From: Thiotrichales bacterium
Lineage (GTDB): Bacteria; Pseudomonadota; Gammaproteobacteria; Francisellales; CACEW01
Reading direction: 5' to 3'
Assembly: GCA_947478525.1 (NCBI GenBank)
Contig: CANJVU010000007.1
Span: 33,920 to 97,919 of the forward strand
Length of the DNA: 64,000 nucleotides
The position numbers and the translations under genes were made by a program. Positions within the stretch are counted from its first letter, which is position 1, and each line of letters opens with the position of its first letter. The notes below the pieces were generated by a model that was given only the letters and a program-made list of their open reading frames with translations, was not told the DNA's origin and made no database searches. This document shows, in pieces, positions 37,833-64,000 of this stretch.

Positions 37833-37837
37833 TAAGG

Positions 37838-39178: not shown

Positions 39179-39604
39179 ATGTCAAAATTTATTGATTTAG
39201 CAGAATTGGTTTCACAAGAGAGAATTGATTTTGCAAATGAAGCTGCTGGCCATGTTAAGATACTTAATAAAGCGCAGAAAGTTGGAGAAGCTGAGACCTT
39301 TGTTCCTGATTATGTACAAAATGTTATAGAGTGGCGATTGGATGATTTTATTGCACAGTATGAGCTATCGGTTCCAAATTACATTAAAATAGATGTCGAT
39401 GGTGCAGAATTAAACGTCATTGAAGGGCTTGAAAAAACGTTGAAGAATAGCAAGTTAAAGTCAATTTTTATTGAATTACATGAAGACAGTGAAGATACAC
39501 CACTGATTCGAAATAAATTAAAGTTGTTAGGATTTACGGAGAAATCAAGGCACCAGGTTCAGCACTATACCAATCTAACCAACTATGTTTTTGCAAAGTC
39601 ATGA
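39179..39604 (+). CDS. FkbM-family methyltransferase-like protein, C-terminal half only (possibly truncated or remnant)
   Basis: VPNYIKIDVDGAELNVIEGLEKTL matches the FkbM signature (..KIDVEGAE..VL.G). No N-terminal SAM-binding GxG motif is present in this 141-145-aa ORF. Confidence 0.5.
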   Translation: MSKFIDLAELVSQERIDFANEAAGHVKILNKAQKVGEAETFVPDYVQNVIEWRLDDFIAQYELSVPNYIKIDVDGAELNVIEGLEKTLKNSKLKSIFIELHEDSEDTPLIRNKLKLLGFTEKSRHQVQHYTNLTNYVFAKS

Positions 39605-40542: not shown

Positions 40543-40545
40543 CCG

Positions 40546-47787: not shown

Positions 47788-49779
47788 ATGTGTGGTATTG
47801 TTGGTCTTAGCGGTCAATTTTCTCGAGAGCTGTTGCCGCAAATGTTGCAATTAATCCGTCATCGTGGTCCCGATGATCATGGTTCAATAGCGCTTCAGCA
47901 TCAAAATATCAATACTCAACTGGGTCAGCAACGGTTGTCGATTATTGACTTGTCTGCCAATGGCCATCAACCCATGAGCGTGAGGTGTGCCTGTTGCCAG
48001 CCAACAGCAGATGAACATCAAAAAATCTGGTTAGTATTCAATGGCGAAATTTATAACCATTTAACCTTGCGTGAAAACCTATTAGCGAAAGGACATACTT
48101 TTTTTTCGCATACCGATTCAGAGGTGTTGATTCATCTTTACGCAGAATATGGCGTAGAGATGCTCAGTCAACTGCGCGGTATTTATAGTTTTGCGATCTA
48201 TGATGGCCGTGCCAGTGGTCAAAAATCAGGAGTGTGTCCAGGCGATTTATGGGTGGTGCGAGACGAGTTGGGGGTGAAGCCACTTTATTATACTCAAACT
48301 ACTGAAGGATTTTTATTTGCTTCCGAATTGAAAGCGCTATTAGCGTGTCCTTCCGTTTCTCGTGAATTAGATATTGGTGCATTGGATTATTATCTTACTT
48401 ACTTATGGTGCCCCTCACCGCAGACAGCTTTAAAACAGGTCAAAAAATTGGAAGCTGGTTACGCCTTATTGGTCAGAGATGGTAAGATTACCAAACACTG
48501 GCAGTATTATGATATTCCTTATGGCAAAAAACCCTTATTAACCGGTAGCTTTGCAGAGATTGCCGAAGAGGTTGCCAGTCGAGTCAAAGCATCGGTAGAG
48601 CGGCAATTGATTGCAGATGTGCCCATTGGCGCTTTCCTATCAGGTGGTCTTGATTCCAGTTCTATTGTGGCATTTATGCGACAACTACAACCAGAACGTC
48701 CAGTTGAATGCTATACGATTGAAACCATCGGTCATCAAGAAGGGTTTGCGGATGACTTACCTTACGCTCAGCGGGTCGTAAAACATCTAGGCGTTCCTTT
48801 GCATGTGGTGCAGGCTGAACCGCAGATGATTAACCAGTTGAGCCGCATGTTGTATCACATGGACGAACCACAGGCCGACCCAGCACCGATTAATGCGTTA
48901 TTGATTTCTGAGTTAGCGCAGCAACAAGGGTTAAAAGTGTTGATGTCAGGTGCAGGAGGTGATGATATTTTCAGTGGGTATCGACGTCATCAAGCATTGC
49001 ATTTGCAACGTTATTGGCAATGGTTGCCGCAAGTGGCGAAGAAACAATTGGCTGGTGTGGCAAGAGCGGCAATGTCAGGTCGTGGTTTTGGTGCTGGCCA
49101 TCCGATATTACGTCGAGCAGCAAAATTATTGGCTTACTGTGATAAGGGTGGCAATGAGTCCATTGCTCATTTTTTTGAATGGAATACTTCTACGATTAGG
49201 CATTCGTTGTATCGCCCTGGCATCCGCGCTCAGTTGAGTGAGGGAAATCCTTTATTGGCGGCGTTACAGAATATTCCCGATAACGTAGATGATCTCAACA
49301 AGATGCTTTATTTGGACAGTAAATTTTTCTTAACTGATCATAACTTGAATTATACCGATAAAATGTCGATGGCCGTGGGTATCGAAGTGCGGGTTCCATT
49401 GCTGGATCTCGATTTAGTCAATTTTGCCACGCGTATTCCCCCTGCTATGAAACAAAAAGGAAATATAGGAAAAGCAATTTTTAAAAAAGCGATGGAACCT
49501 TACTTGCCTCACAATATTATTTATCGGCCTAAAACTGGATTTGGTGCACCGTTGCGGCAATGGTTGAAAGGACCGCTCAAGCCAATACTTGCTGAGCTGC
49601 TGTCGGAGACATCTTTACAGCGTCGTGGCTTGTATGAACCTGCAGCGGTAAAACGTTTAATTAACTTGGATCAACAGGGTAGAGCTGATGGGTCGTACAC
49701 CATTTTTTCGCTGCTGTGTATAGAGCTATGGTGTCGTCAGTTTGTCGATGTTACAATACCCACCATTATTGATTTGTGA
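47788..49779 (+). CDS. Asparagine synthase (glutamine-hydrolysing)-family amidotransferase
   Basis: N-terminal nucleophile MCGIVGL, GATase II domain (FNGEIYNH, SDSEV) and synthetase PP-loop FLSGGLDSS. 663 aa. Confidence 0.9.
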   Translation: MCGIVGLSGQFSRELLPQMLQLIRHRGPDDHGSIALQHQNINTQLGQQRLSIIDLSANGHQPMSVRCACCQPTADEHQKIWLVFNGEIYNHLTLRENLLAKGHTFFSHTDSEVLIHLYAEYGVEMLSQLRGIYSFAIYDGRASGQKSGVCPGDLWVVRDELGVKPLYYTQTTEGFLFASELKALLACPSVSRELDIGALDYYLTYLWCPSPQTALKQVKKLEAGYALLVRDGKITKHWQYYDIPYGKKPLLTGSFAEIAEEVASRVKASVERQLIADVPIGAFLSGGLDSSSIVAFMRQLQPERPVECYTIETIGHQEGFADDLPYAQRVVKHLGVPLHVVQAEPQMINQLSRMLYHMDEPQADPAPINALLISELAQQQGLKVLMSGAGGDDIFSGYRRHQALHLQRYWQWLPQVAKKQLAGVARAAMSGRGFGAGHPILRRAAKLLAYCDKGGNESIAHFFEWNTSTIRHSLYRPGIRAQLSEGNPLLAALQNIPDNVDDLNKMLYLDSKFFLTDHNLNYTDKMSMAVGIEVRVPLLDLDLVNFATRIPPAMKQKGNIGKAIFKKAMEPYLPHNIIYRPKTGFGAPLRQWLKGPLKPILAELLSETSLQRRGLYEPAAVKRLINLDQQGRADGSYTIFSLLCIELWCRQFVDVTIPTIIDL

Positions 49780-51296
49780 GTTTTAACATGCAAAGAATGC
49801 TGCGATTATGGCGTTTTAAAAAGGCTGAGATTGTCCATTTTTTTGAGAATACTTTTATTGTTTACTCAAGAGCGAATAAAGTTTTTTGTGAATCAGATGG
49901 TAAGAAAATATTGTTCAAGCTACCGCTTCCCATATTGCTGTCTGTCCTGAGTAAATTTAGGTTGATGCGTAGAATGCTGCGTCTTGATAAAATGAATGTA
50001 GTCGTTTCCCTAGATAAGCATTTTTTGGTGATTATTTACCATTACAAAGTTTATAAATTCTGTTTGCAAAAGCAAACGCTTACCCCCACTTTATTTCTTA
50101 AAAATTGCCGTAATGTTCTGCATCAATCGATTTTGGTACAAGAAGATCGTATAGTCTTTGGTGAATATGTGGCTAATAAAGAGCGAGTGTCGGTGCCGGT
50201 TTGGCAGTCAGTAGATCGGGGTGAAACCTGGCAGAATATATACACCTTTCCAGCGAAAACCGTTAAGCATGTTCATGGAGTATATCAAGACCCAATTTCG
50301 AACAATATTTTTATTACTACCGGAGATTTTCAAAATGAAAGTTATCTTTTTGAATTTAATTCCTCATTTCAGTTGCTTAATCAGTTTGGGGATGGCTCGC
50401 AGCTGTATCGCACGGTAGGGTTGTTTTTTACTGTAGATTATCTTTATTGGATTATGGATAGCCAGCTAGAAACTTCTTACTTAATTAAATTTGATCGTAA
50501 AACCAAAAAAATTGAGCAGCTTAGAGATTTTCCAGGCCCAGTGTGGTATGTGAAAACATTATCAGATGGAACGTATTTGGCAGCGACTACGCGAGAAATA
50601 GGGAAAGGGGTTAAAACCAATTGCGCCCATCTTTTTGTTTCAAAAGATCTTGAGCAATGGGAGGATGTATTACAGTTGGAGCATGATGGATTGCCCATCC
50701 GTTTTTTTAAATCTGGCATTATTGGTTTTGCAGAAGGCAGACAGAGCAGTAAAAAGTTTTTTATTTTTGGTGAAGCATTGAAGAATTGTGATGGTAGGGT
50801 ATACCTTTGTTGTTTAGAAGGGTTGGAAAATGAGGATAAAAAAGCACTGAATCATCTGATATTGGAGTATGTTAGTAACAGAGCGGTTGCTGTGCCATCG
50901 CGGTTATTGCCACCGCTGTTCTCTCCCCCTAAAGGCAAGTTTTGCGAATTTTCGGAAACAGATTTTTACCAACTGTGCGCGCATTGCCTGGCATCAGAAG
51001 CGCTGGAGGGGCCTCTTTGGGAATGGCTTGAAAAAATCAGAAATTTTTTAGAGAGTAATATATTCAGAATTCATGCTATTATGGAGAAGCGCTTTCTGAT
51101 AGAGCAAGTTTCAAAACGTAGATTGTTATTAGAGTGGTTTACTGCTTTGATGTTTTTGGCTTCCTCGAAATATAGAGATGATGCTTATACAAATATTTTC
51201 TTGAAATTAGCAAAAATGGTTAATAAGCCTGATTTTTTAGCGCCATCGCTACAGGTGGGTTATCAAGCTTTTATCAATAACATTGGGAAAAAATGA
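49776..51296 (+). CDS. Hypothetical protein with an Asp-box (BNR)-like motif, possible beta-propeller N-domain plus helical C-domain
   Basis: WQSVDRGETWQNI fits the SxDxGxTW Asp-box, and a weaker second box is VSKDLEQWEDV. No family recognised. GTGA overlap with the upstream gene. Confidence 0.4.
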   Translation: MSFNMQRMLRLWRFKKAEIVHFFENTFIVYSRANKVFCESDGKKILFKLPLPILLSVLSKFRLMRRMLRLDKMNVVVSLDKHFLVIIYHYKVYKFCLQKQTLTPTLFLKNCRNVLHQSILVQEDRIVFGEYVANKERVSVPVWQSVDRGETWQNIYTFPAKTVKHVHGVYQDPISNNIFITTGDFQNESYLFEFNSSFQLLNQFGDGSQLYRTVGLFFTVDYLYWIMDSQLETSYLIKFDRKTKKIEQLRDFPGPVWYVKTLSDGTYLAATTREIGKGVKTNCAHLFVSKDLEQWEDVLQLEHDGLPIRFFKSGIIGFAEGRQSSKKFFIFGEALKNCDGRVYLCCLEGLENEDKKALNHLILEYVSNRAVAVPSRLLPPLFSPPKGKFCEFSETDFYQLCAHCLASEALEGPLWEWLEKIRNFLESNIFRIHAIMEKRFLIEQVSKRRLLLEWFTALMFLASSKYRDDAYTNIFLKLAKMVNKPDFLAPSLQVGYQAFINNIGKK

Positions 51297-52108
51297 TGGA
51301 TAAGCCGGTCGCCGTTTTCTCTCCCAACCCTTATAGCATGTTTTCAATTGCCACTCTAGAGTTATTGATTCGTAGTGGGGTTCCAGTAGAAACAATTTTT
51401 GTAAGGAGTTTGTTTAACCCCAAAAGATTTATACAAGAATACCGGCAAAATGGTTATCGTTTTTTGAGGAAAATTTATCGAAAACTGATCCTTCGTTCCA
51501 GTGGATTAAAAACGGTGTCTACGGATGATATGACGATCATGAGAATGATGCAGCAAGAAAATATAAAAGGAAAAAATTTATGGGTGCTTGCTCAACAGTA
51601 TAATATTCGCATTATCTCCGTTGCAGACTACGCTGATGCTAAAGTAGAGCAGTCATTAAAGACTGACCCTGTGGCCTGTGTGGTTTTTACGGGGGGAGGT
51701 ATTGTACCGGAAAAAGTGATTGAAGCATCTGGTCTGGGGGTGATCAACTGTCACATGGGTATTTTACCCTATTATCGGGGAATGGATGTAGTGGAATGGC
51801 CTTTGTTAGAGAAAAAATTTGAATTGATTGGTATGACTACACATTTGATGGTTAAATCTATTGATATGGGTCCGATTATTGAAACGGTTTTAGTGGATGG
51901 TAAACGTTTTCAACATATTGCACAGCTTAGAAATTTTTTAGAGAGTCAAATGCCATTAATACTGGTGAGAGCAACAAGAAATCTCCTTAATAATACGGCA
52001 GCTTTGAAACCGCAGCGCGTTTCTGACGGGCGTCTTTATTTTAAAATGGATTCTCATCTTCTGGCTATCGCAGAAAAAAATTTAAAAAACTATTATCATG
52101 AAACTTAG
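51293..52108 (+). CDS. Formyltransferase-fold protein (Fmt/PurN N-terminal-domain-like)
   Basis: VINCHMGILPYYRGMDVVEW parallels the (N.H.SLLP..RG) formyltransferase motif, and the downstream IGMTTHLMVKSIDMGPII parallels the catalytic Asp region. Confidence 0.55.
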   Translation: MMDKPVAVFSPNPYSMFSIATLELLIRSGVPVETIFVRSLFNPKRFIQEYRQNGYRFLRKIYRKLILRSSGLKTVSTDDMTIMRMMQQENIKGKNLWVLAQQYNIRIISVADYADAKVEQSLKTDPVACVVFTGGGIVPEKVIEASGLGVINCHMGILPYYRGMDVVEWPLLEKKFELIGMTTHLMVKSIDMGPIIETVLVDGKRFQHIAQLRNFLESQMPLILVRATRNLLNNTAALKPQRVSDGRLYFKMDSHLLAIAEKNLKNYYHET

Positions 52109-52130: not shown

Positions 52131-54293
52131 ATGAAACAAATTCTTCAACAATTGAACACTGGAAAAATAGAGATACTGGAGATCCCCTGCTCAAAACCGT
52201 CCGCTGGTCAGCTGTTAATACAAAGTAAATGTTCGCTGATTTCTGCGGGTACTGAGCGTATGTTGCTCAATTTTGGCAAAGCAGGCTTGATTGGCAAGAT
52301 CAAACAACAGCCTGATAAAGTGAAACAGGTCTTGGAGAAAGTGAAAACCGATGGATTGTTCACTACGATAGAAGCGGTAAAATCCAAACTGGATCAGCCA
52401 ATTCCACTGGGATATTGCAATGTTGGCCGAGTGTTGGAAGTTGGTTCAAGTGTAGAAGGGTTTATGATTGGCGATCGGGTGTTGTCTAATGGTGCGCATG
52501 CGGAGTTGGTGCGTGTGCCAAAAAATTTGTGTGTTAAGATTCCCGATTCAGTTGCTGATGAATCTGCGGTGTTCGGGGTGCTTGGTGCCATTGGGTTACA
52601 AGGTATTCGCTTGGCACAACCAACTCTCGGTGAAAGTGTTGTTGTATTGGGTCTTGGGTTAATTGGATTACTGACGGTTCAGTTACTGCAAGCGCAAGGT
52701 TGCCGAATTTTGGGTGCAGATTTTGATCCAGCTAAACTGGCATTGGCGAAACAATATGGTGCGGAAACAGTGGACTTATCGCAGGGTGAAGATGTTCTTG
52801 CGCGGGCGCTGGCATTTTCACGAGGTCATGGGGTGGACGTGGTTTTAATTACCGCGTCGACTAAAAGCAGCGATCCTGTGCATCAGGCTGCTTTGATGTG
52901 CCGTAAACGCGGTAGAATTGTATTGGTTGGTGTGACGGGTCTTGAATTATCACGGGAAGATTTTTTCAAGAAAGAATTAAGTTTTCAGGTTTCTTGCTCT
53001 TATGGCCCTGGGCGGTATGACCCAGAGTATGAAGACAAAGGACATGATTATCCGATTGGTTTTGTGCGCTGGACTGAACAACGTAATATTGAGGCTGTAC
53101 TGGATATGATGGCAGCATGTCGCATCGACGTGCAATCATTAATTAGTCATCGATTTTCGATTGATCAAGCAGAACAGGCATATCAAGCGCTTGATTCTGA
53201 TCCAAGTGTGTTAGGAATTGTTTTAAACTACCCACAAGTCATTGCAATGGAGAAACAGGTTTTATTATCTACTCCTGCTTTTATAAAGCGTTCAGGTGCA
53301 GCTCCAGTGGCAGCATTTATTGGTGCTGGTAATTACGCCAGCCGGATGTTGATTCCAGCATTTAAAAAAGCCGGTATTCATTTGCATAGCATAGTTTCAG
53401 GTCAAGGTGTCAGCGCAGTAGTGCATGGTAAAAAAAATGGTTTTGAAATAGCTACAACGGATTACGAGACGGTGCTGCAAAATTCAGTTATTAATACTGT
53501 GGTTATTGCTACGCGCCCTAATCAACATGCACAACAAACCATTCAGGCGCTTAAAGCAGGTAAACATGTGTTTGTAGAAAAGCCGTTGGCCATTCATGAA
53601 GGAGAACTACAGCAAATCAGCACGGTTTATCAAGAGACGGCACAACAATTCCCAGGGCAAAAATTGATGGTGGGATTTAATCGTCGTTTTTCACCACAGG
53701 TTCGAAAAATCAAACAACTCCTCAATACAGTAAAAACACCTAAATATCTTGTTATGATGGTGAATGCAGGCTTTATGCCAGATGATAATTGGACGCATGA
53801 CCCACAAATAGGAGGGGGGCGTTTTATTAGCGAAGGCTGTCATTTTATTGATTTGTTGCGTTTTTTGGTAGGAGCAACGATTACAGATACACAAATATCA
53901 GCCATGTCACCTGAAACTAGTATAGTGCCCAAAAATCAAAACATTACTGTTACCCTTAAATTTGCCGATGGCTCGCTTGGTACTGTTCATTATTTTGCTA
54001 ATAGCCATAAACGAGTATCTAAAGAGCGCTTAGAAATTTCGGCTGCAGGAAAAGTGTTGCAACTCGATAATTTTAGAAAATTGGTTGGTTATGGCTGGAC
54101 TGGGTTCGGTAAATCTGGGTTTAGTAAAATGTCGTTATGGAAACAAGACAAAGGTCAATCGCAAGCGGTGAAAGCATTTGTTGATGCCATTCAAAATGGT
54201 ACTGATTCCCCCATCGTTTTTGAGGAGTTGTTTGAGGTGTCAAATGTTTGTCTTGAGTTAAATCAACGTTTGATGCAGAGTGGCAAATCATAG
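52131..54293 (+). CDS. Bi-domain oxidoreductase (MDR/alcohol-dehydrogenase-like N-domain + Gfo/Idh/MocA C-domain)
   Basis: The N-half has an MDR pattern (GYCNVGRVLEVG, GLGLIGLL). The C-half has a Gfo/Idh/MocA Rossmann AFIGAGNYASRMLIPA and KHVFVEKPLA. Confidence 0.8.
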   Translation: MKQILQQLNTGKIEILEIPCSKPSAGQLLIQSKCSLISAGTERMLLNFGKAGLIGKIKQQPDKVKQVLEKVKTDGLFTTIEAVKSKLDQPIPLGYCNVGRVLEVGSSVEGFMIGDRVLSNGAHAELVRVPKNLCVKIPDSVADESAVFGVLGAIGLQGIRLAQPTLGESVVVLGLGLIGLLTVQLLQAQGCRILGADFDPAKLALAKQYGAETVDLSQGEDVLARALAFSRGHGVDVVLITASTKSSDPVHQAALMCRKRGRIVLVGVTGLELSREDFFKKELSFQVSCSYGPGRYDPEYEDKGHDYPIGFVRWTEQRNIEAVLDMMAACRIDVQSLISHRFSIDQAEQAYQALDSDPSVLGIVLNYPQVIAMEKQVLLSTPAFIKRSGAAPVAAFIGAGNYASRMLIPAFKKAGIHLHSIVSGQGVSAVVHGKKNGFEIATTDYETVLQNSVINTVVIATRPNQHAQQTIQALKAGKHVFVEKPLAIHEGELQQISTVYQETAQQFPGQKLMVGFNRRFSPQVRKIKQLLNTVKTPKYLVMMVNAGFMPDDNWTHDPQIGGGRFISEGCHFIDLLRFLVGATITDTQISAMSPETSIVPKNQNITVTLKFADGSLGTVHYFANSHKRVSKERLEISAAGKVLQLDNFRKLVGYGWTGFGKSGFSKMSLWKQDKGQSQAVKAFVDAIQNGTDSPIVFEELFEVSNVCLELNQRLMQSGKS

Positions 54294-54308
54294 CTTAAGA
54301 GAGAAACC

Positions 54309-55502
54309 ATGAAGAAAATTTGTGTCATAGGATTGGGTTATATTGGGTTGCCCACTGCATCATTATTGGCTACCAAAGGATTTGATGTATTGGGTGTGGA
54401 TATTCGTGCTGATGTAGTAGAAAAACTCAATCGCGGTGAAATTCACATTGTTGAACCAGGGTTAGATGTTCTGGTGAAGTCTGCCGTGCATTCCGGTAAT
54501 TTTAAGGCCAGTCCCAAACCGGCATTGGCAGATATTTTTATTTTAGCAGTACCCACGCCATTTCATGAAGACAAAACGCCTGATATTACCTATGTCGAAG
54601 CAGCAACGCGCAGCATTGCACCGTTTTTGGCAGAAGGTAATTTGGTGATTCTGGAGTCGACTTCGCCAGTTGGAACGACGGCACATATACAAAAAATTAT
54701 TTCTACAATGCGACCGGAATTAAAAAATATTTACTATGCACATTGCCCTGAGCGGGTGATTCCAGGAAAGGTATTGCAAGAGTTGATTGAAAATGATCGA
54801 GTGGTCGGTGGGGTAGATGCAGAATCTACCGAAAAAACCGTAGCATTTTATCGTGGCTTTGTTGCGGGCAAAGTTTTGGCTACCGATGCCAAAACCGCTG
54901 AAATGTGTAAACTCACTGAAAATGCCTTTCGCGATGTGAATATCGCCTTTGCTAATGAGTTATCATTGATTTGCGACAAGCTCAATATCAACGTCTGGGA
55001 GTTAATTCGTTTAGCGAACCATCATCCGCGGGTTAAAATTTTACAACCTGGTCCTGGTGTCGGCGGGCATTGTATTGCGGTAGATCCTTGGTTTATTGTG
55101 GCCTCGGCGCCAGAGGTATCACCATTGTTGCGCACCGCGCGTCAGGTGAATGATGGTAAGCCGGAATGGGTGATTGCCAAAGTGACGGCAGCAGCAGCTA
55201 AATTTAAAAACCCTGTCATTGCCTGTTTGGGCGTGGCATTTAAAGCAGATATTGACGACTTGCGTGAGTCACCGTCATTAATGATTGCCGAGCGATTACG
55301 CGATGCTAATATTGGCCAAGTATTGGTATGTGAACCCAATGTAAATCAATTGAAGGGATTTGAATTGGTGGATCTTGAAACCGCGATTTTACGTGCGGAT
55401 ATTCTGGTGATCTTGGTGGATCATCAGCCATTTAAAATCTTGGAAAAACAACAGGTTAGGGGCAAGGTGGTAATTGATACCAAAGGGATTATTCGGCCAT
55501 GA
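54309..55502 (+). CDS. wecC: UDP-N-acetyl-D-mannosamine dehydrogenase
   Basis: Collinear by eye with E. coli WecC: ICVIGLGYIGLPTA, NRGEIHIVEP, AVPTPF, AEMCKLTENAFRDVNIAFANELSLIC, QPGPGVGGHCIAVDPWF. Adjacent to wecB. Confidence 0.88.
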   Translation: MKKICVIGLGYIGLPTASLLATKGFDVLGVDIRADVVEKLNRGEIHIVEPGLDVLVKSAVHSGNFKASPKPALADIFILAVPTPFHEDKTPDITYVEAATRSIAPFLAEGNLVILESTSPVGTTAHIQKIISTMRPELKNIYYAHCPERVIPGKVLQELIENDRVVGGVDAESTEKTVAFYRGFVAGKVLATDAKTAEMCKLTENAFRDVNIAFANELSLICDKLNINVWELIRLANHHPRVKILQPGPGVGGHCIAVDPWFIVASAPEVSPLLRTARQVNDGKPEWVIAKVTAAAAKFKNPVIACLGVAFKADIDDLRESPSLMIAERLRDANIGQVLVCEPNVNQLKGFELVDLETAILRADILVILVDHQPFKILEKQQVRGKVVIDTKGIIRP

Positions 55503-56629
55503 TAAAAGTTTTGTCAATCGTAGGCACCCGCCCTGAAATCATTAAAATGGCGCCGGTGATTCAGCAGTTGCAAAAAACGTCTAGCATCGTCTCGCAAGTA
55601 TGCACAACCTCGCAACACCGCACGATGCAAGATCAAATGATGCAGTTATTTGGGTTGAAAGCAGATTACGATTTGGATGTAATGAAACCTAATCAGGATT
55701 TGTTTTATCTCACCAGTGAAATGTTGGTGCGGTTACAAAGTGTATTGCAGCAAGCTAAGCCAGATTTGGTGTTGGTGCAAGGCGATACCACCACCAGTTT
55801 TGTTGGTGCTTTAGCTGCATTTTATTGCCAGATTCCTGTAGGGCATGTCGAAGCGGGGCTGCGTACGCATAATTTACTGGCACCATTTCCGGAAGAAGCC
55901 AATCGCCAGTTGACTGGCCGCTTAGTCACGATGCATTTTGCACCGACGGAAACCTCCAAGCGTCATTTATTACAGGAAGGCGTTGCTGAAAATCGTATTT
56001 GGGTGACCGGTAATACCGTGATTGATGCACTATTATGGATGCGTCAGCATTTGAATCTCAATCGAATTAAAGCGGCTTTGCCAGGCAATATCTTGCAACT
56101 GATTGAGCAACAAAAACCGTATGTGTTAATTACCGGCCATCGCCGTGAAAATTTTGGTGAAGGCTTTTTGTCCATTTGTCGAGCGATTCAAATTTTGGCA
56201 ACTCGTTATCCAAAATGGAATTTTGTCTATCCCGTGCATTTAAATCCCAATGTGCGTAAACCAGTTTTTGATTTGTTGGCAGGGTATGCCAATATTCATT
56301 TGATAGAACCAGTCGACTATGAACCGTTTGTGCATTTAATGGATCATTGCAAAATTGTATTGACCGATTCAGGTGGGGTGCAAGAAGAAGCGCCATCACT
56401 GGGTAAGCCGGTATTGGTGATGCGTGAAGTCACTGAGCGTCCGGAAGGGATTGAAGCGGGCACTGCTAAATTAGTAGGTACTGCAGAGGCTACGTTGATT
56501 GCCGCAGTGTCTGAGTTGATTGATGATCCACTGGCGTATCAACGCATGGCCAATGCGGTGAATCCTTATGGCGATGGTACCGCAGCACAGCAGATTGTGA
56601 ATCATATTACTGGCCACTTGTTGTTATGA
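55499..56629 (+). CDS. wecB: UDP-N-acetylglucosamine 2-epimerase (non-hydrolysing)
   Basis: KVLSIVGTRPEIIKMAPV...VLVQGDTTT...HVEAGLRT...PFPEEANR...TDSGGVQEEAPSLGKPVLVMR. Confidence 0.95.
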   Translation: MIKVLSIVGTRPEIIKMAPVIQQLQKTSSIVSQVCTTSQHRTMQDQMMQLFGLKADYDLDVMKPNQDLFYLTSEMLVRLQSVLQQAKPDLVLVQGDTTTSFVGALAAFYCQIPVGHVEAGLRTHNLLAPFPEEANRQLTGRLVTMHFAPTETSKRHLLQEGVAENRIWVTGNTVIDALLWMRQHLNLNRIKAALPGNILQLIEQQKPYVLITGHRRENFGEGFLSICRAIQILATRYPKWNFVYPVHLNPNVRKPVFDLLAGYANIHLIEPVDYEPFVHLMDHCKIVLTDSGGVQEEAPSLGKPVLVMREVTERPEGIEAGTAKLVGTAEATLIAAVSELIDDPLAYQRMANAVNPYGDGTAAQQIVNHITGHLLL

Positions 56630-58512
56630 AATATCATCGACGCCTAGATCAACTGCATACGTTATTTCGATTGAGTATGGTCAATATTCTACGTGTTGCG
56701 ATCTATCGATTAAAAATGAAGTTTAGATATTATCAATTTCGTTTGCCGATTAAGGCTTGGCGATTGCAGATGCGCGATTGTTTTTCCTCAGCATCTTCTG
56801 TTGAGTTAGCAAGTTCATCTTCTGCTGAGCAATTTGTGGAAAATGTTAATCGTATCATGGCGGGTGAGTGGTGTTTTTATTTTTATCATTGGTTTAAAAG
56901 CGACGCACTTCCTTCATGGACCTGGTGTCCGTTTGCTCAAAAACAATGGTCAGCGACTCAAGCGCATTGGTCAAGGTTATCGTTTTTTGCAAAACCAGGG
57001 GAGGATATAAAAAATATCTGGGAACTATCGCGGTTTTATTGGGCACCGCAATTGGCGTTGGCGTACCGTTTAACCGGTCAATCAGAATATCAAATACGAC
57101 TGAATCAATTGATCGAACATTGGTGTGTTGTAAATACTCCACAGAAGGGGTATCAGTGGTTATGTGCGCAAGAAACCGCCATTCGATTAATTAATTTTCT
57201 ATTGGCAGATCATTTGATTCATGTTGATAAGACGCCGCCTTCATTGGTTGCCGTTGAGTTTGTTGAAACCCACGTCAGACGGATTTTATTGACCATGTCC
57301 TATGCAATTGCACAAGACAATAATCATGCCACCAGTGAAGCAGCAGCACTCTATATTGCAGGTGCTTGGTTATCATCACATAATCCTTCTTCTTTACTTG
57401 GCAGGCGGGCGCTATTAAAAGGAACGTATTGGCTAGAAAATCGAGTGCAACGGTTAATTGCACAGGATGGAACGTTTTCTCAATATTCGGTTACCTATCA
57501 TCGACTTTTGGTGGATACGTTATCGCTATGTGTTTGGGCGCGGTGTAGGCAAGAATTGCCAGAGTTCTCGGTAATATTTTATCAACGCTATCGCGCTGCT
57601 TTTGAATGGTTGAGAAACTTGGTGGATCCTGTATCAGGAGACGCCCCCAATCTGGGTGCTAATGATGGTGCATTGCTCTTCAAATTAGACGGTGGTGATT
57701 ATCGAAATTTTCGTCCTAGCTTGCAATTGGCTTCTGTACTGTTAGACCAGAAAAAATTATATCAAGCAGGTCCCTGGGATTTACCTTTGACTGCATTGGG
57801 AATAGCCTATGAATCATTGCCCATTGCGGTGAGCATAATAGCTTCTGTAGCGTTTGCTGATGGTGGGTTTGTTAAATTACAGCATGCCAATCATTGGGCA
57901 TTACTGCGTTATCCCCAGTTTCGTTTTCGCCCTGGCCATGCTGATGCTTTTCATGTTGATTTATGGATGGATGGTCGCAACGTTTTGCAAGATGTGGGCA
58001 GTTATAGTTATAACCCTGTTGGTTCTAGTGGACTTGAGTTTAAAGGAGTGGCTGCACACAATACCATTCAATTCGATGATCATGAACAAATGCCCGTATT
58101 ATCTCGGTTTTTATGGGGGGCTTGGTTGAAAAGTAACGTATTGCATCCTTTGAAAGATTCAAAAGAATTAATGTCTTGGTGTGGGAAATATCAGGACTAT
58201 CAGGGTGCGCAACATCAGCGTGAAATACGCCAAACCGCAAACGGCTATTGCATTAAGGATTGTGTATCTGGCTATCAACAGCAAGCAGTGCTGCGTTGGC
58301 ATGTCTGCTCAGGAGATTGGTTGCCAGAGGAAGATGGTTGGCGATTGGGTAAAGTTAAGTTGTTGATTTATGTCGGTGGTAAAATAGCACTGCCCGTATT
58401 GCGCGAATCCTGGCATTCTTTATACTATCAGCAGAAACAATTAAGGCCAGTGTTTGAAGTATCATTACCTGCATCGGAAGCAGTAGTGAAAACATTGATT
58501 GAGTTGGAGTAA
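56626..58512 (+). CDS. Heparinase II/III-family (alginate-lyase-fold) protein
   Basis: IWELSRFYWAPQLALAY...QWLCAQETAIRLINF (alpha/alpha toroid part), and C-terminal HADAFHVDLWMDG...AHNTIQFD typical of heparinase II/III-like proteins. Confidence 0.75.
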   Translation: MKYHRRLDQLHTLFRLSMVNILRVAIYRLKMKFRYYQFRLPIKAWRLQMRDCFSSASSVELASSSSAEQFVENVNRIMAGEWCFYFYHWFKSDALPSWTWCPFAQKQWSATQAHWSRLSFFAKPGEDIKNIWELSRFYWAPQLALAYRLTGQSEYQIRLNQLIEHWCVVNTPQKGYQWLCAQETAIRLINFLLADHLIHVDKTPPSLVAVEFVETHVRRILLTMSYAIAQDNNHATSEAAALYIAGAWLSSHNPSSLLGRRALLKGTYWLENRVQRLIAQDGTFSQYSVTYHRLLVDTLSLCVWARCRQELPEFSVIFYQRYRAAFEWLRNLVDPVSGDAPNLGANDGALLFKLDGGDYRNFRPSLQLASVLLDQKKLYQAGPWDLPLTALGIAYESLPIAVSIIASVAFADGGFVKLQHANHWALLRYPQFRFRPGHADAFHVDLWMDGRNVLQDVGSYSYNPVGSSGLEFKGVAAHNTIQFDDHEQMPVLSRFLWGAWLKSNVLHPLKDSKELMSWCGKYQDYQGAQHQREIRQTANGYCIKDCVSGYQQQAVLRWHVCSGDWLPEEDGWRLGKVKLLIYVGGKIALPVLRESWHSLYYQQKQLRPVFEVSLPASEAVVKTLIELE

Positions 58513-58516
58513 ACCA

Positions 58517-59770
58517 TTGCGCGTTTTATATATACATCAATACTTCACCACTGCTCAAGGGGCAGGGGGGACGCGTTCTTATGAATTTGCCAAGGCGCTG
58601 ATTGCACGTGGACATTCGGTAACGATGTTGTGTGGTTCGGCGCAACGTGGCGTTACAGGGCTCACGCAGCCTTTTTCAAAAGACAAGCGTCAAGGCCTGG
58701 TCGAAGGGATTGAGGTCATAGAAATTGATTTGGCTTACTCTAACTATGATGGCTTTTTTAAACGTGCCCTGAAATTCATGAAGTTTATTTATAAAACTTT
58801 GCAGATTGTTTTGACGGGAAAATATGATTTACTCTATGCCACTTCTACGCCTTTAACCGTTGCTATTCCTGGTATTTTTGCCAAAATTTTTCGCCGTAAG
58901 CCATTTGTGTTAGAAATACGCGACTTATGGCCAGAACTCCCAAAGGCTATGGGGGTAGTGAAGAATCCTTTGGTGTTGAGTGGGCTAGGGTTATTGGAGC
59001 GGATGGCCTATCGTTTTGCCGATGTAGGTGTTGGTCTTTCTCCCGGAATTTGTGAAGGGATGGCTCGATTTGGTACTTTACCAAAAGATAAAATCACCTT
59101 AATCCCTAATGGCTGTGATATCGAAATTTTCCAAAAAAATGAGCCCATGGATGAGGGTAATATTCCACTCTTGTTAAGAGAATTGCTCGCTACAAAATTT
59201 ACCGTTGTTTTTTGTGGTGCACATGGCTTGGCCAATGGGTTGGATGCAGCGTTAGACGCTGCTGCGCGATTACAAAAACAGGGTTTGCATCATATCGCGT
59301 TGATTTTTATTGGAGATGGGAAAAGTAAGCCACAACTAATGGAGCGAGTCAAAAAAGAAGCATTAACCAATAGTTATTTTTTTGATCCTATTGCTAAAAC
59401 TGCTTTGAGTTGGGTATTGCAAAGAGCTGGTATTGGGATGATGCTGTTAAAAAATATTCCTGCCTTTTATTACGGGACTTCGCCCAATAAATTTTTTGAT
59501 TATATTGCCAGTGGCTTGCCGGTATTGAATAATTATCCGGGCTGGGTAGCAGAGTTAATTGCGGAAACTCAATGCGGTATTGTAGTGCCACCTGATGCAT
59601 CTGAGGCATTTGCCAATGCTTTGATTGATTTTTCAAAGTTAAGTAAAACGCAATGGCAAGTGTTTTCGCATCGTGCTTTACAGTTGGCAAAAGAGAGATT
59701 CAATCGGGAAGCTTTATCGGCAAAATTTGTAATGGTGTGTGAGCAGGTTTATGATCAAAAGAATCGTTGA
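58517..59770 (+). CDS. Family 4 glycosyltransferase (WbuB-like)
   Basis: (L/M)[22 protein letters not shown] is the WbuB-type N-terminus. Inferred TTG start at 58517, 7 nt after GGAG. GT4 C-domain with E..G(.)VVPP. Confidence 0.85.
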
Positions 59771-60353
59771 TTTATTGTTGGCGACTTTTTTGCTGATTAT
59801 ACTTAGCTGGTTATTGCTGATTGTTTATATTTTAGTGGTTTGTTTTTTAGGAACGCCAGGGCTATTTCACCAGCAGAGGCCTGGGCTGCACGAGAAAATC
59901 TTTACCGTTTATAAATTTCGTACTATGAATGACAAACGAGATGAGGCTGGTGATTTACTGCCAGACCATATTCGATTAACCAAGTTTGGTCAGTTTCTTC
60001 GTAAAGCCAGTTTAGATGAGTTGCCCCAACTATTTAATGTATTAAAAGGCGATATGAGTTTTATTGGCCCTCGCCCTCTGTTAATCGAATACTTGCCATT
60101 GTATAATGCCCATCAGAAGCATCGTCATAAAGTTCGGCCAGGGATTACTGGGTGGGCGCAAGTGAATGGTCGAAATGCCATTTCTTGGGACGAAAAGTTT
60201 AGACTGGATGTCTGGTATGTTGACCATCAATCGTTTTGGCTGGATATGAAAATCTTTTGGTTGACGGCTAAAAAAGTGTTTAAGCGAGAAGGAATTAGCC
60301 AGGCTGGACAAGCGACGATCGAAAGGTTTTATGGTGATAAAAAGGAGTTGTGA
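59751..60353 (+). CDS. Small monotopic undecaprenyl-phosphate sugar phosphotransferase (PglC/WbaP-C-terminal type)
   Basis: [17 protein letters not shown]...FHQQRPG...VYKFRTM...[24 protein letters not shown]...[10 protein letters not shown]. Confidence 0.9.
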
Positions 60354-60577
60354 TGAATCGAGCGGACGTATTGCTGTTACTGGATGAATTACTGGAGGTT
60401 AATCCAGGTACTTTAATAGGAAATGAGTCCATCCAAGAGTGGGATTCTATTGCCATTATTGGCTTAATCGCATTGGCAGATGAACATTTCGATAAGCGAA
60501 TTTCTGTGAGCCAGTTACAGAATGTTAACACCGTTGATGATGTTATCAAGCTATTGTTAAGTAAATATGAAAAATAA
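60353..60577 (+). CDS. Acyl carrier protein-like (dedicated, cluster-encoded)
   Basis: About 74 aa four-helix-type sequence with the candidate phosphopantetheine site EWDSIAIIGL. AAGGAG lies 5 nt upstream of ATG 60353. Confidence 0.7.
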   Translation: MNRADVLLLLDELLEVNPGTLIGNESIQEWDSIAIIGLIALADEHFDKRISVSQLQNVNTVDDVIKLLLSKYEK

Positions 60578-61328
60578 TTTTGTTAGTTTACAGGGTAAAA
60601 CAATTCTAGTCACCGGTGCATCTGATGGCATTGGCCGAGCGAGTGCTGCGTTGTTTGCTCAACTGGGTGCCAAAGTGATTTTGGTTGCGCGCAATGAAGA
60701 AAAGTTAAAAGAGGTTTATCGGTCTTTAGTGGGTACAAGTCATGTAATTGCGCCTTTTGATCTGAAAAATTTAGAAGAAATTCCTGTCTTTTTAACTCGT
60801 CTTGCTGGCGAACATGGGTTGCTGCATGGCCTGCTGCATGCCGCGGGGATTCATCTAGTGCGACCGTTGAAATTGATTACCCCACAGAATTTAGAAGATA
60901 TTTTTAAAGTGAATGTCAGTGCTGCTATCATGCTTGCCAAAGGGTTTCGCCAAAAAACCGTCTCACAACGTCCTGCCAGCCTGGTGTTCATTTCATCGGT
61001 GGTTGCCTTGGTGGGGCAGGCCGCTATTTCACCCTATGCAATGACCAAAGGAGCAATTATGGCCGCGGCAAAATCGTTGGCAATAGAATTAGCACCGGAA
61101 CAGATTCGTGTCAATTCAATTTTACCAGGCGTGGTTATGACCGCCATGACGGAATCGTTATTTGCCAAAATGGGCGAAGAGCAGGTGATGGCGATCAAAA
61201 AGATGCATCCTCTCGGTTTTGGTGAGCCGATTGACGTTGCTAATATGGTAGCGTTCTTATTATCAGATGCTGCCAGATGGATTACGGGTACGGATATGAT
61301 GGTGGATGGCGGCTATACCGCGATTTGA
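60567..61328 (+). CDS. SDR-family oxidoreductase (FabG / 3-oxoacyl-ACP reductase-like)
   Basis: ILVTGASDGIGRA (TGxxxGIG), the S...YxxxK context SPYAMTKGA, and PG motif ILPGVV. Confidence 0.88.
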   Translation: MKNNFVSLQGKTILVTGASDGIGRASAALFAQLGAKVILVARNEEKLKEVYRSLVGTSHVIAPFDLKNLEEIPVFLTRLAGEHGLLHGLLHAAGIHLVRPLKLITPQNLEDIFKVNVSAAIMLAKGFRQKTVSQRPASLVFISSVVALVGQAAISPYAMTKGAIMAAAKSLAIELAPEQIRVNSILPGVVMTAMTESLFAKMGEEQVMAIKKMHPLGFGEPIDVANMVAFLLSDAARWITGTDMMVDGGYTAI

Positions 61329-61336
61329 GAGAGAAT

Positions 61337-61945
61337 ATGAAAAAAGAATTAATTATTGTTGGTGCGAGTGATTTTGGCAAAGAAATTGGTGCCTGGTTGC
61401 CTGGAGTATTGGGTGTTGATCATTTTGAATTTAAGGGTTTTTTAGACGATAATATTGCCTGCAGTGATTTTGGAGCTATCAAAGGTTTTCTCCCACAAGA
61501 AAAGCATGTTTTTGTTTGTGCAATTAATCACCCTAAGTCGCGAGAAGGGGTTATTCATCAGTTAAGACAAAAGGGAGCGATTTTTATTAATTTGATTCAT
61601 TCTTCGGCTGTTATTTGTAGTGATTTATTGCCGGATAATGCATTGATTGTGGCACCTTATGTTTTTATATCAAGAAACGTCAAGCTAGGTGTCGGCGTGG
61701 TTTTAAATATTGCCAGTTCAATTGGCCATGATGCGGTGCTCGATGATTTTGTGACTACCTGTCCTCATGGTGTTGTTAGTGGTTTTTCTAAACTGGGAAA
61801 ACGCGTTTTTATGGGTTCGCATGCCTGTGTTATTCCACATAAAACGGTTGGAGATGATGCCATTATTGGGGCTGGCAGTGCAGTGATGCGTAATGTTCCG
61901 CCTGCAACCACTGTAGTAGGTGTGCCCGCAAAAAGGTTAATATAA
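61337..61945 (+). CDS. PglD/NeuD-family hexapeptide-repeat N-acyltransferase
   Basis: LIIVGASDFGKEI N-domain, then LbH repeats with SSIGHDAVLDD (the His position matches the PglD catalytic His). ATG 61337 preferred over the 61277 extension. Confidence 0.8.
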   Translation: MKKELIIVGASDFGKEIGAWLPGVLGVDHFEFKGFLDDNIACSDFGAIKGFLPQEKHVFVCAINHPKSREGVIHQLRQKGAIFINLIHSSAVICSDLLPDNALIVAPYVFISRNVKLGVGVVLNIASSIGHDAVLDDFVTTCPHGVVSGFSKLGKRVFMGSHACVIPHKTVGDDAIIGAGSAVMRNVPPATTVVGVPAKRLI

Positions 61946-62952
61946 TGCAAAAAGCTTTGATTGGCGCGATAGAATATTACCTACCTCAATCGACTTTAAC
62001 GAATGACGTTTTGGCTGTCCAATTTCCGGAGTTTTCCGCTGAGAAGATTTTCGCGAAAACCGGCATCAAGCAACGTCATATTTCCGCTGCTGATGAATGT
62101 TCTTCAGATATGGCCGTTCAAGCAGCACAAAAATTATTTGCCAGTGGTGTGATTCAACCAGAGCAAATTGATTTTCTATTGTTTTGTACCCAAACACCAG
62201 ATTACCTGCTACCCACCAGCGCCTGCGTGATCCAGGATCGACTGGGCTTGCGATTGTCCGTGGGTGCACTGGATTTTAATCTGGGATGTTCGGGATTTAT
62301 TTATGGATTATCGTTGGCAAAAGGGTTAATTGAATCCGGTCAGGCCATGAATGTATTATTATTAACCGCTGACACCTATACCAAATTGATTGAACCGACT
62401 GATAAATCGGTTAAAACTATTTTTGGTGATGGTGCTGCGGCAACGTTGATAACGGGTGTTGATTATGAAAAAGAATTGATTGCACCGGTTGCTTACGGTA
62501 CCGATGGTCGTGGTGCAGAAAACCTTTGTACATTGGGTCGTGGCATGCGTCATGGTAACAGCGACGCCGACCCTTATTTGCGAATGAAAGGCCCCAAAAT
62601 ATTTGAATTTACTTTAGACGTTGTGCCAGGGGTGATTGAACAAGCGTTGGTAAAAGCAAAAACAACTTTTGGTGAAATTGAACTTTTTGTCTTTCATCAG
62701 GCCAATGCTTATATGCTGGAGCATCTGCGTAAAAAATTGAATATTCCTCAGGAAAAATTCTGGGTGGCGATGGATTTTTGTGGCAATACTGTTTCCTCAA
62801 CCATTCCGATTGCGTTGAAAGAAGCGCAAAAAACCGGTATGTTGGTGGGTAAGAAAAAAGTCATGTTGGTCGGGTTTGGAGTCGGGTATTCCTGGGCCGC
62901 AGCAGTGGTTGATTTAGATAATTTTGGGAGTTCAGTCAATGAATGTGGTTAA
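61945..62952 (+). CDS. KAS III (FabH)-like 3-oxoacyl-ACP synthase
   Basis: Cys-His-Asn triad contexts DFNLGCSGFIY, FVFHQAN and CGNTVSSTIP. 335 aa. Confidence 0.85.
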   Translation: MQKALIGAIEYYLPQSTLTNDVLAVQFPEFSAEKIFAKTGIKQRHISAADECSSDMAVQAAQKLFASGVIQPEQIDFLLFCTQTPDYLLPTSACVIQDRLGLRLSVGALDFNLGCSGFIYGLSLAKGLIESGQAMNVLLLTADTYTKLIEPTDKSVKTIFGDGAAATLITGVDYEKELIAPVAYGTDGRGAENLCTLGRGMRHGNSDADPYLRMKGPKIFEFTLDVVPGVIEQALVKAKTTFGEIELFVFHQANAYMLEHLRKKLNIPQEKFWVAMDFCGNTVSSTIPIALKEAQKTGMLVGKKKVMLVGFGVGYSWAAAVVDLDNFGSSVNECG

Positions 62953-64000
62953 TGATCTAGCCAAATGGCCTGTTTATGGTACCGATGAAATCGATGCAGT
63001 AGTAAACGTTTTAAAGTCAGGTAAAGTTAACTACTGGACTGGTTCAGAGTGTAAATTATTTGAAAAAGAATATGCGGAGTCGATTGGTTGTCAATATGCC
63101 GTGTCTTTAATGAATGGCACAGTAGCGCTGGAGCTGGCATTAATTGCCCTGGATATTAAAGCGGGTGATGAGGTGATTACACCCAGCCGCACGTTTATGG
63201 CATCGACCAGTTGTATTATTGCCAGAGGCGCGATACCAGTATTTGCAGAAGTGGATCGTGTTTCACAAAACGTAACCGCTGCAACCATTGAGGCGGCGAT
63301 TACGCCTAGAACCAAAGCAGTAATTGTGGTGCATCATGCCGGTTGGCCGTGTGAGATGGATAAAATCATGGAACTGGCGAAGCGTCGCAATCTTTATGTG
63401 ATTGAAGACTGTGCACAAGCGCATGGTGCCATGTACAAAGGCAAAGCGGTGGGCAGTTGGGGGCATGTGGCGGCATTTTCATTTTGTCAGGATAAAATCA
63501 TTACAACGGGTGGAGAGGGTGGGTTATTGACCACCAATGATAAAACTTTTTGGGAACGTGCCTGGTCCTACAAGGATCATGGCAAAGATTATGATACCGT
63601 GTTTCATAAACAACATCCGCCTGGTTTCCGTTGGATTCACGCATCGTTTGGCAGCAACTGGCGTATGACTGAGATGCAGGCGGCGATTGGTCGACTTCAA
63701 TTGCGCAAACTCCCCGAATGGACTCATATCCGTACGCGTTGTGCGCAGGCATTTAATGAAGCGTTTGCTAAGATTGCCGCATTACGCATAACACCTGTTC
63801 CGCCAGAGGTGGTGCACGCCCATTATCGTTATTATATGTTTGTGCGATCTGATGAGCTCAAACCAGATTGGAATCGAGACCGTATTATGCAGGAGATCAA
63901 CAAGCGCGGAGTAATTTGCTTGTCGGGAGGATGTCCAGAGGTCTATCTTGAAAAATCTTTTGATCACACGCCTTATCGTCCTGCGCAACGCTTTCCAATA
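62939..64000 (+). CDS. DegT/PglE-type sugar aminotransferase, 3' end beyond window
   Basis: Not in the ORF track because it runs off the end. My translation is MNVVNDLAKWPVYGTDEIDAVVNVLKSGKVNYWTG...VITPSRTFMAST...IEDCAQAHGA...FSFCQDKIITTGGEGG (PLP Lys), open to nt 64000. Confidence 0.88.
   Translation, partial: MNVVNDLAKWPVYGTDEIDAVVNVLKSGKVNYWTGSECKLFEKEYAESIGCQYAVSLMNGTVALELALIALDIKAGDEVITPSRTFMASTSCIIARGAIPVFAEVDRVSQNVTAATIEAAITPRTKAVIVVHHAGWPCEMDKIMELAKRRNLYVIEDCAQAHGAMYKGKAVGSWGHVAAFSFCQDKIITTGGEGGLLTTNDKTFWERAWSYKDHGKDYDTVFHKQHPPGFRWIHASFGSNWRMTEMQAAIGRLQLRKLPEWTHIRTRCAQAFNEAFAKIAALRITPVPPEVVHAHYRYYMFVRSDELKPDWNRDRIMQEINKRGVICLSGGCPEVYLEKSFDHTPYRPAQRFPI

Follow-up and report, generated by a model that had tools for sequence, protein, structure and literature searches.

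A polysaccharide gene block of an uncultured Thiotrichales bacterium predicted to make and mount an N-acylated bacillosamine using a dedicated acyl carrier protein

A stretch of 64,000 nucleotides (nt) from an uncultured Thiotrichales bacterium (GenBank assembly GCA_947478525.1, contig CANJVU010000007.1, positions 33,920 to 97,919 of the forward strand), hereafter the window, was analyzed for a block of six genes at its 3' end. The block encodes a PglC-type phosphoglycosyl transferase (PGT), an acyl carrier protein (ACP), an SDR (short-chain dehydrogenase/reductase), a PglD-family N-acyltransferase, a 3-oxoacyl-ACP synthase III (KASIII) and a DegT aminotransferase. The six genes had been proposed in an earlier reading made from the sequence alone, and all of them were recovered as open reading frames (ORFs) on the plus strand where that reading had placed them. 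The same locus was found by exact-protein look-up on a 128-kb ENA metagenome scaffold (L001), which is identical, and on two short Logan contigs.

Genes of the block

The block is compact and is preceded by a gene for a GT4 glycosyltransferase, also on the plus strand. The sequence-only reading had described the genes as all tightly overlapping. This holds for the junctions of GT4 and PGT (20 nt), PGT and ACP (1 nt), ACP and SDR (11 nt), acyltransferase and KASIII (1 nt) and KASIII and aminotransferase (14 nt), but not for the SDR and acyltransferase genes, which are separated by an 8-nt gap, the only spacer in the block.

The PGT (59751..60353, 200 aa) is of the small monotopic PglC type and matches Bac_transf with 215.7 bits. 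The PF02397 match covers residues 7-182 of a 204-aa reading with a GTG start, which correspond to residues 3-178 in the 200-aa numbering. Its hydrophobic N-terminus fits the single N-terminal membrane helix of the PglC type, and the catalytic dyad Asp89-Glu90 is present within the motif SLDELP. When compared with the N,N'-diacetylbacillosaminyl-1-phosphate transferase (PglC) of Campylobacter concisus (8g1n), it scored 262 bits over the full length (residues 2-195), and it is predicted to be the initiating transferase of the repeat unit. The GT4 glycosyltransferase (58517..59770, 417-423 aa; matches to Glyco_trans_4_4, Glyco_trans_1_4 and Glycos_transf_1) probably adds the second sugar to the lipid-linked first sugar. 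A WbuB-like GT4 occupies the equivalent position ahead of wfpB in Flavobacterium psychrophilum.

The DegT aminotransferase gene (62939..64000) is cut by the end of the window, which holds 354 of its 398 residues (DegT_DnrJ_EryC1 301.7 bits), and the enzyme is predicted to act at C4 of UDP-4-keto-6-deoxy-GlcNAc. The full-length protein, taken from the L001 copy, matches Pcryo_0638 (7l7x) of Psychrobacter cryohalolentis with 490 bits over residues 7-386, and enzymes of the PglE type with 98 bits only. Pcryo_0638, its closest characterized relative, converts UDP-4-keto-6-deoxy-GlcNAc to UDP-2-acetamido-4-amino-2,4,6-trideoxy-D-glucose, as established by kinetics and structure (PMC8040287), and the same substrate and product are predicted here. 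Lys186 and Gln184 of the window enzyme, within the motif CQDK, correspond to the published Lys185 and Gln183 of Pcryo_0638, the pyridoxal phosphate lysine and the glutamine in contact with the 2-acetamido group.

It had also been predicted that a PglF/CapD-type dehydratase would lie just beyond the end of the window, and such a gene was indeed found on the identical scaffold L001 (12412-14244), 220 nt after the aminotransferase gene. Its 610-aa product contains CoA_binding_3 and Polysacc_synt_2 domains, carries the motif T410-D411-K412 and shares 334 bits with Campylobacter jejuni PglF (5bju). As convergent genes come next on L001, the polysaccharide locus ends after the dehydratase gene. Due to these matches to Pcryo_0638, PglF and PglC, the predicted bacillosamine skeleton is well supported.

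The ACP (60353..60577, 74 aa) passes the PF00550 PP-binding cutoff only marginally (21.4 bits; cutoff 20.8). A word-indexed protein search with it returned only four proteins, and the ACP family was therefore built from the DNA of related loci. The PP-binding profile matches 11 of the 16 cassette ACPs (best E-value 8e-11). Conversely, a profile made from all 16 matches acyl carrier proteins only among the structures in the PDB (best 1vku, E-value 1.6e-5, full length). Ser32, within the motif WDS, is invariant across the 16 proteins and aligns with the serine of the DS(L/I) motif at the start of helix II; it is the predicted phosphopantetheine attachment site. The family profile and the invariant serine strengthen the initial call of a 74-aa ACP-like protein with a WDS site. 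A match to Yersinia ruckeri that came up in the literature search concerned a citrate-lyase ACP and was set aside as irrelevant.

The KASIII (61945..62952, 335 aa) scored 281.9 bits with NF006829 (cutoff 249) and 257.4 bits with TIGR00747, the fabH model (cutoff 292.1). Since it lies above the first cutoff and below the second, it is a KASIII but not an orthologue of the housekeeping FabH. Its best solved relative is the KASIII of Burkholderia pseudomallei (3gwa, 348 bits). Cys115, His251 and Asn281 align with C112, H244 and N274 of Escherichia coli FabH, whose reference sequence was checked at these three catalytic positions. The triad is thus intact, as first read, and the possibility that the protein is a non-condensing acyltransferase was rejected.

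The SDR (60567..61328, 253 aa; adh_short_C2 169 bits) is a predicted 3-oxoacyl-ACP reductase. It contains the cofactor motif TGASDGIG at residues 16-23, the catalytic tetrad Asn116/Ser144/Tyr157/Lys161 and Arg42 after strand beta-2, a signature of the NADPH type. The residue that corresponds to the ACP-binding Arg129 of E. coli FabG is conserved. However, the protein falls below every FabG equivalog cutoff (TIGR01830 149.1 bits, cutoff 297.75; all FabG NF models likewise), and the best curated model, a glucose 1-dehydrogenase subfamily, is also below its cutoff. Judged by these models, it is a classical SDR and not a FabG orthologue. The label 'FabG-like' given to it earlier was right in the motifs TGxxxGIG and YxxxK (Tyr157/Lys161) and loose in the family assignment.

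The acyltransferase (61337..61945, 202 aa) belongs to the PglD/NeuD/VioB family of left-handed beta-helix N-acyltransferases. It falls below the cutoffs of TIGR03570 NeuD/PglB/VioB (148.2 bits; cutoff 160.8) and PglD_N (18.8 bits; cutoff 23.4), and by its sequence it is a divergent NeuD/PglB/VioB member. It matches VioB, WeeI and PglB-ATD across residues 3-201 and C. jejuni PglD over residues 39-201 (95 bits). His131 aligns with PglD His125, which we take to be the catalytic base.

Related cassettes and characterized systems

Related loci were gathered from the genome contexts of acyltransferase homologues, from a KASIII genome scan and from an ACP-centred metagenome scan, and all were mapped by BLAST. 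The KASIII scan used exact peptide words and returned 10 loci, all of them in metagenome-assembled genomes (MAGs); none came from a cultured one-KASIII carrier of known chemistry. A cassette of ACP, KASIII, SDR and PglD-type acyltransferase was observed in 15 distinct loci, usually flanked by a PglC-like PGT, a DegT aminotransferase and a PglF-like dehydratase. The hosts are Gammaproteobacteria (Legionella geestiana, Legionella and Legionellaceae MAGs, a Thiotrichales MAG and others including Halioglobus) and Flavobacteriia (Nonlabens, Aequorivita and a Flavobacteriales MAG). The nearest relatives of the block are in Thiotrichales and Legionella MAGs.

The KASIII proteins of these loci are of two types, both of which retain the catalytic triad. 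KAS-A enzymes (about 350 aa; for example L011 2270-3346) are encoded between ACP and SDR, share 34-41 % identity with the window KASIII and have 4efi as best solved relative. KAS-B enzymes (about 330 aa) share 49-77 % identity with the window KASIII, which is itself of this type. Two KASIII genes are present in 13 of the 15 loci. The window and L008 have one, a KAS-B in both cases. As L008 KAS-B is equally distant from all others (about 50-56 % identity) and the nearest relatives of the window carry two KASIII genes, the single-KASIII state arose more than once. No KAS-A remnant was observed in the window when the ACP/SDR junction was inspected. A recent pseudogenising deletion was considered and rejected, the junction being clean and all ORFs intact.

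A KAS-B-type enzyme with no KAS-A detected was found in several modules (L008, L033, L034, L037, L044, L020 and L022), of which L034, L037 and L044 are contigs of 1.4-1.5 kb, so that a KAS-A gene could lie past their ends. KAS-B is the only KASIII type retained in single-KASIII modules, and this distribution supports the view that it is a self-sufficient initiator. Because KAS-B is also the constant partner of the ACP, we infer that it initiates and that KAS-A carries out the second extension.

In the case of the acyltransferase, every homologue of at least 41 % identity that was looked up is cassette-linked, and the 38 %-identical homologue of Vibrio chagasii is a stand-alone VioB-like enzyme beside rmlBADC. 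In gammaproteobacterial loci the gene is embedded in the module, between SDR and KASIII. In L. geestiana it stays with ACP, KASIII and SDR, and no homologue of PGT, DegT or PglF was found in the 16.6 kb examined; the acyltransferase is therefore tied to the ACP module and not to the sugar genes. This context supports the prediction that the enzyme takes its acyl group from the ACP. To our knowledge, no enzyme of the PglD/NeuD family has been shown to use acyl-ACP, and our literature search turned up no enzymology of an acyl-ACP-dependent member.

The cassette varies in composition. In cultured L. geestiana (L004 3114-9590; CP041713, about 1.353-1.370 Mb) the order is ACP, KAS-A, SDR, acyltransferase and KAS-B, adjoined by an 868-aa MBOAT protein. 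Several two-KASIII cassettes have a Rieske/ring-hydroxylating-type oxygenase between SDR and acyltransferase (L006 6919-8004, L010 6257-7396, L012 4763-5869, L014 6181-7317 and L027 2744-3826), which suggests that the acyl chain is oxidised further, to a product absent from the descriptions in the papers that we read. In the metagenomic relative L033 (4321-8663), the gene for a 218-aa protein is followed by those for a FabD-type transacylase, the ACP, the SDR, a hydrolase of the metallo-beta-lactamase fold and KAS-B, and then by DegT, dehydratase and PGT. Its transacylase, directly before the ACP, matches Acyl_transf_1 with 99 bits and fits malonyl-ACP extension; the module has a malonyl loader of its own and possibly a thioesterase-like step. 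Pairs of a small ACP and a KAS-B-like enzyme (59-60 % identity to that of the window), with no SDR, were observed in polysaccharide loci of Acidobacteria and Deltaproteobacteria (L020 6770-8017 and L022 6031-7978), and one of them adjoins a 247-aa hexapeptide acyltransferase. L017 (6134-9575, a Nonlabens MAG) contains PGT, acyltransferase, a fragment that looks like another PGT and KAS-B and has neither ACP nor SDR. The locus is apparently a cassette that has been degraded or rearranged.

The closest described system is the Wfp gene set (O-polysaccharide R1 group) of the fish pathogen F. psychrophilum, which includes a 200-aa PglC-like PGT (wfpB), a 333-aa KASIII (wfpC), a 76-aa ACP (wfpD), a 350-aa KASIII (wfpE), a reductase (wfpF) and a PglD homologue predicted to draw its acyl group from the ACP (wfpG), with pglE and pglF adjoining (PMC6519341). 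For D-Qui2NAc4NR, synthesis and transfer of the 3,5-dihydroxyhexanoyl group were attributed to wfpC-G; the sugar is chemically established and the gene assignment is a genomic inference only (PMC6519341, Cisar et al. 2019). Another gene set with ACP and KASIII in F. psychrophilum is described in the 2026 FlavoTyper preprint. The Wfp set is like the window block in its PglC-like PGT, ACP, KASIII, ketoreductase-type SDR, PglD homologue and adjoining pglE/pglF, and it is proposed to act on UDP-QuiNAc4N. However, it has two KASIII enzymes, whereas the window has KAS-B only, so that one extension fewer is expected, and the gene order also differs. As there is a single KASIII and no trace of KAS-A, the window block is a one-KASIII variant and not a member of the two-KASIII Wfp group. 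The sequence comparison was made through flavobacterial proxies (L016, L018 and L019), the Wfp proteins themselves being compared by description. In flavobacterial loci with the Wfp layout, identity to the window proteins is 49-53 % for KAS-B and 38-42 % for the SDR; for the flavobacterial-type acyltransferases of L015-L019, proxies for WfpG, it is only 24-29 %.

The pgl system of C. jejuni (PglF, PglE, PglD and PglC) shares the sugar logic and gene neighbourhood of the window. In contrast, its PglD uses acetyl-CoA, it has no ACP, KASIII or SDR and its product is an N-linked heptasaccharide, whereas the window encodes a Wzx/Wzy polymer and an aminotransferase of the Pcryo_0638 type. Pcryo_0637, the partner of Pcryo_0638, is an acetyl-CoA-dependent acetyltransferase and shares only about 50 bits with the window acyltransferase (PMC8040287). 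In Acinetobacter baumannii, D-QuiNAc4N with (S)-3-hydroxybutanoyl is made by qhbC, qhbB and gdr only, with no ACP module (PMC9676051). This is the sugar predicted for the window, and a dedicated acyltransferase takes the place of the acetyltransferase qhbA. As the module lacks ACP, KASIII and reductase, general metabolism presumably supplies the donor in the form of a CoA thioester. Sugars of this kind can thus be reached by at least two routes, of which the ACP route is one. In Vibrio cholerae O100, QuiNAc4N carries 3,5-dihydroxyhexanoyl (3S,5S), and antigenicity depends essentially on the (R)-3-hydroxybutanoyl group of the neighbouring Fuc4N (PMC12024518). A literature search on ACP or 3-oxoacyl genes together with 3-hydroxybutanoyl in O-antigen clusters gave nothing relevant beyond leads to O-antigen papers on Acinetobacter and E. 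coli. Sugars with 3-hydroxybutanoyl are mentioned in the E. coli O-antigen review and in the Acinetobacter papers of 2013, ACP or KASIII genes in neither.

In other systems (NodF/NodE/NodA, LpxD and V. cholerae O1 RfbK-O), a sugar amine is acylated with a pathway-specific ACP and condensing enzyme or by an acyl-ACP-dependent left-handed beta-helix enzyme. These differ from the window block in enzyme families, acceptors and chain lengths.

Proposed pathway and alternatives

The block probably serves to make the first sugar of the polysaccharide repeat unit and to mount it, the sugar being an N4-acylated bacillosamine whose acyl group, likely 3-hydroxybutanoyl, is built on the dedicated ACP. On strong homology, the PglF-type dehydratase and the Pcryo_0638-type aminotransferase would convert UDP-GlcNAc to UDP-2-acetamido-4-amino-2,4,6-trideoxy-D-glucose. 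From the parts list, KAS-B would join acetyl-CoA and malonyl-ACP to give acetoacetyl-ACP, which the SDR would reduce to 3-hydroxybutanoyl-ACP, and the pathway would stop there because no dehydratase, enoyl reductase or second KASIII accompanies the acyl genes. The housekeeping FabD and AcpS would serve for the loading of malonyl and for phosphopantetheinylation. The acyltransferase, to judge from synteny, would then pass the ACP-bound 3-hydroxybutanoyl group on to the C4 amine, and the PGT would load the sugar phosphate onto undecaprenyl phosphate for extension by the adjoining GT4. In two-KASIII loci, KAS-A would add one C2 unit, giving 3,5-dihydroxyhexanoyl as in F. psychrophilum and V. cholerae O100. 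A requirement for the S configuration, as in the C6 group of V. cholerae O100 and the C4 group of A. baumannii, could account for a dedicated reductase that is not FabG, but this is speculation.

The sequence-only reading had already suggested that the cluster makes its own 3-hydroxyacyl-ACP for the PglD-like enzyme, and the suggestion gains support from the synteny in 15 loci and from the published interpretation of wfpC-G. A broader proposal, for and against which we see about equal odds, is that the cassette is a modular mini-synthase, widespread among bacteria, by which the N-acyl groups of bacillosamine-type sugars are diversified. KAS-B, ACP and SDR would give 3-hydroxybutanoyl, an added KAS-A working on a 3-hydroxyacyl primer would give 3,5-dihydroxyhexanoyl, an added Rieske oxygenase or second SDR would give further decorated chains, and the embedded acyltransferases would be the first PglD/NeuD enzymes known to use acyl-ACP in place of acyl-CoA.

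Several observations weigh against the proposed pathway. The FlavoTyper 2026 preprint still treats the F. psychrophilum assignment as an attribution. Since A. baumannii makes 3-hydroxybutanoyl-QuiNAc4N with no ACP module, an ACP is not required for this sugar. The block encodes neither FabD nor a phosphopantetheinyl transferase, and its acyltransferase equals CoA-dependent PglD in size, with no added ACP-docking domain. At the positions of E. coli FabH Trp32, Arg249 and Phe87, which we take to serve in CoA-adenine stacking, ACP docking and limitation of primer size, respectively, KAS-B has Lys, Tyr and Leu, and neither primer choice nor chain length can be read from its sequence. In addition, the closest relatives of the window all have two KASIII genes (KAS-B identity 77 % for L010, 73 % for L011 and 71 % for L006), and the single-KASIII state of the window looks like a derived loss.

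A first alternative concerns the identity of the acyl group. Position 87 is Leu, not Phe, in all KAS-A and KAS-B enzymes, and if Phe87 restricts the primer pocket, as we assume, KAS-B might take a propionyl, branched or longer starter, or act twice, so that the same machinery and acceptor would yield a different short or medium 3-hydroxyacyl-bacillosamine. The plasticity of the cassette, which in some relatives is enlarged by Rieske oxygenases, another SDR or a hydrolase of the metallo-beta-lactamase fold, would agree with such a product. However, the only chemically anchored relative builds a C6 chain with 3,5-hydroxyls from acetate units using two KASIII and one reductase, as expected if each KASIII extends an acetyl starter by one C2 unit, and we regard another acyl group as fairly unlikely. 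It is also unlikely, in our judgment, that the PglD-like enzyme is an ordinary acetyl-CoA-dependent acetyltransferase making N,N'-diacetylbacillosamine while ACP, SDR and KASIII serve another acceptor or transferase. Its length and catalytic histidine are those of CoA-dependent PglD, ACP and KAS-B pairs do occur in other polysaccharide loci lacking this acyltransferase clade (L020), and an MBOAT acyltransferase lies beside the L. geestiana cassette. Against these stand the position of the gene inside the module in gammaproteobacterial loci, its persistence there when the sugar genes are absent, the cassette linkage of all its closer homologues down to 41 % identity, with the nearest stand-alone one at 38 %, and a second PglD-type acyltransferase in the window (by DegT, 36034-38503), which is available for ordinary acylation.

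The donor might alternatively be a CoA thioester throughout, with KAS-B as acetoacetyl-CoA synthase or transacylase, the SDR producing 3-hydroxybutanoyl-CoA, a CoA-using acyltransferase and the ACP as an accessory. KASIII homologues that act on CoA substrates exist (e.g. NphT7), the ACP-docking Arg249 of FabH is not conserved in KAS-B, and Acinetobacter makes the same sugar with QhbC, presumably a CoA-using enzyme. We nevertheless hold this chemistry to be decidedly unlikely, given that no partner accompanies KAS-B more constantly across phyla than the small ACP, that in one relative (L033) a FabD-type transacylase directly precedes the ACP and that the SDR retains the ACP-binding arginine equivalent of FabG. 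Finally, the block could be the crippled remnant of a two-KASIII cassette that makes no usable acyl group since the loss of KAS-A and whose genes are decaying. All its closest relatives have KAS-A, some of them also a Rieske oxygenase, and the related locus L017 is visibly degraded. The window block itself has intact ORFs, conserved catalytic residues, compact junctions of the translational-coupling kind and no piece of KAS-A; three further data sets yielded the same sequence on assembly, and independent single-KAS-B modules exist (L008, L033 and others). Decay is thus very improbable.

The idea of an acyl group built on an ACP is already known, having been proposed for F. psychrophilum in 2019. 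The new points are the breadth of the cassette, including Legionella, its modular variation and the division of labour between KAS-A and KAS-B. In O-antigens and capsules, the N-acyl groups of bacillosamine-type sugars form dominant epitopes, and the acyl (R) group of F. psychrophilum makes an independent contribution to the antigenicity of the O-antigen (FlavoTyper preprint). If gene content predicts the acyl group (C4 for one KASIII, C6 for two, oxidised with a Rieske enzyme), glycan chemistry could be read from the genomes of uncultured bacteria and Legionella. If the proposed pathway is true, the PglD/NeuD acyltransferase family would also gain a branch that depends on acyl-ACP, and a KASIII with an unusual elongating role would be defined.

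Surrounding polysaccharide locus

The region from 31 to 64 kb of the window is a single Wzx/Wzy-type polysaccharide locus with the six-gene block at its 3' end. Its genes include, in order, an RmlA-like nucleotidyltransferase, a second amino-sugar set and a PhyH-family dioxygenase. Wzx (41355), a methyltransferase, a GT2 glycosyltransferase, Wzy (44743), a second GT2 (minus strand), an AsnB-like amidotransferase and a formyltransferase-like protein follow in this order. The last part consists of a 720-aa ADH/GFO fusion, WecC, WecB, a heparinase II/III-like protein and the GT4 gene ahead of the block.

The second amino-sugar module (36034-39157, plus strand) comprises DegT, a WbqC-like protein, a 221-aa PglD-type hexapeptide acyltransferase and a methyltransferase. 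This acyltransferase, beside the other DegT (36034-38503), shares 28 % identity with that of the block. Two N-acylated amino sugars that differ from each other are probably present in the polymer.

In distant taxa, the cassette is adjoined by a heparinase II/III-like protein (about 625 aa), an ADH/GFO fusion (about 720 aa) or both (window 52131-58512, L004 1-2348, L010 3-1217, L016 3-3524 and L018 1571-3448). L004 and L016 have both proteins, and L010 and L018 have the heparinase-like protein. The recurrence of these neighbours suggests a larger conserved sugar-modifying block.

Two stretches of the locus (39601-41328 and 49776-52108, plus strand) encode proteins of 313 and 506 aa with no Pfam match, together with the PhyH-family dioxygenase (260 aa) and the formyltransferase-like protein (271 aa, weak Formyl_trans_N match). 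The locus also contains two tandem paralogues of 527 and 524 aa (32232-33815 and 34490-36064, plus strand) that are 80 % identical. Each has a predicted AAA-ATPase domain and a PD-(D/E)XK nuclease domain (PDDEXK_9); their N-terminal 170 or so and C-terminal 100 or so residues are near-identical, and the centre has diverged.

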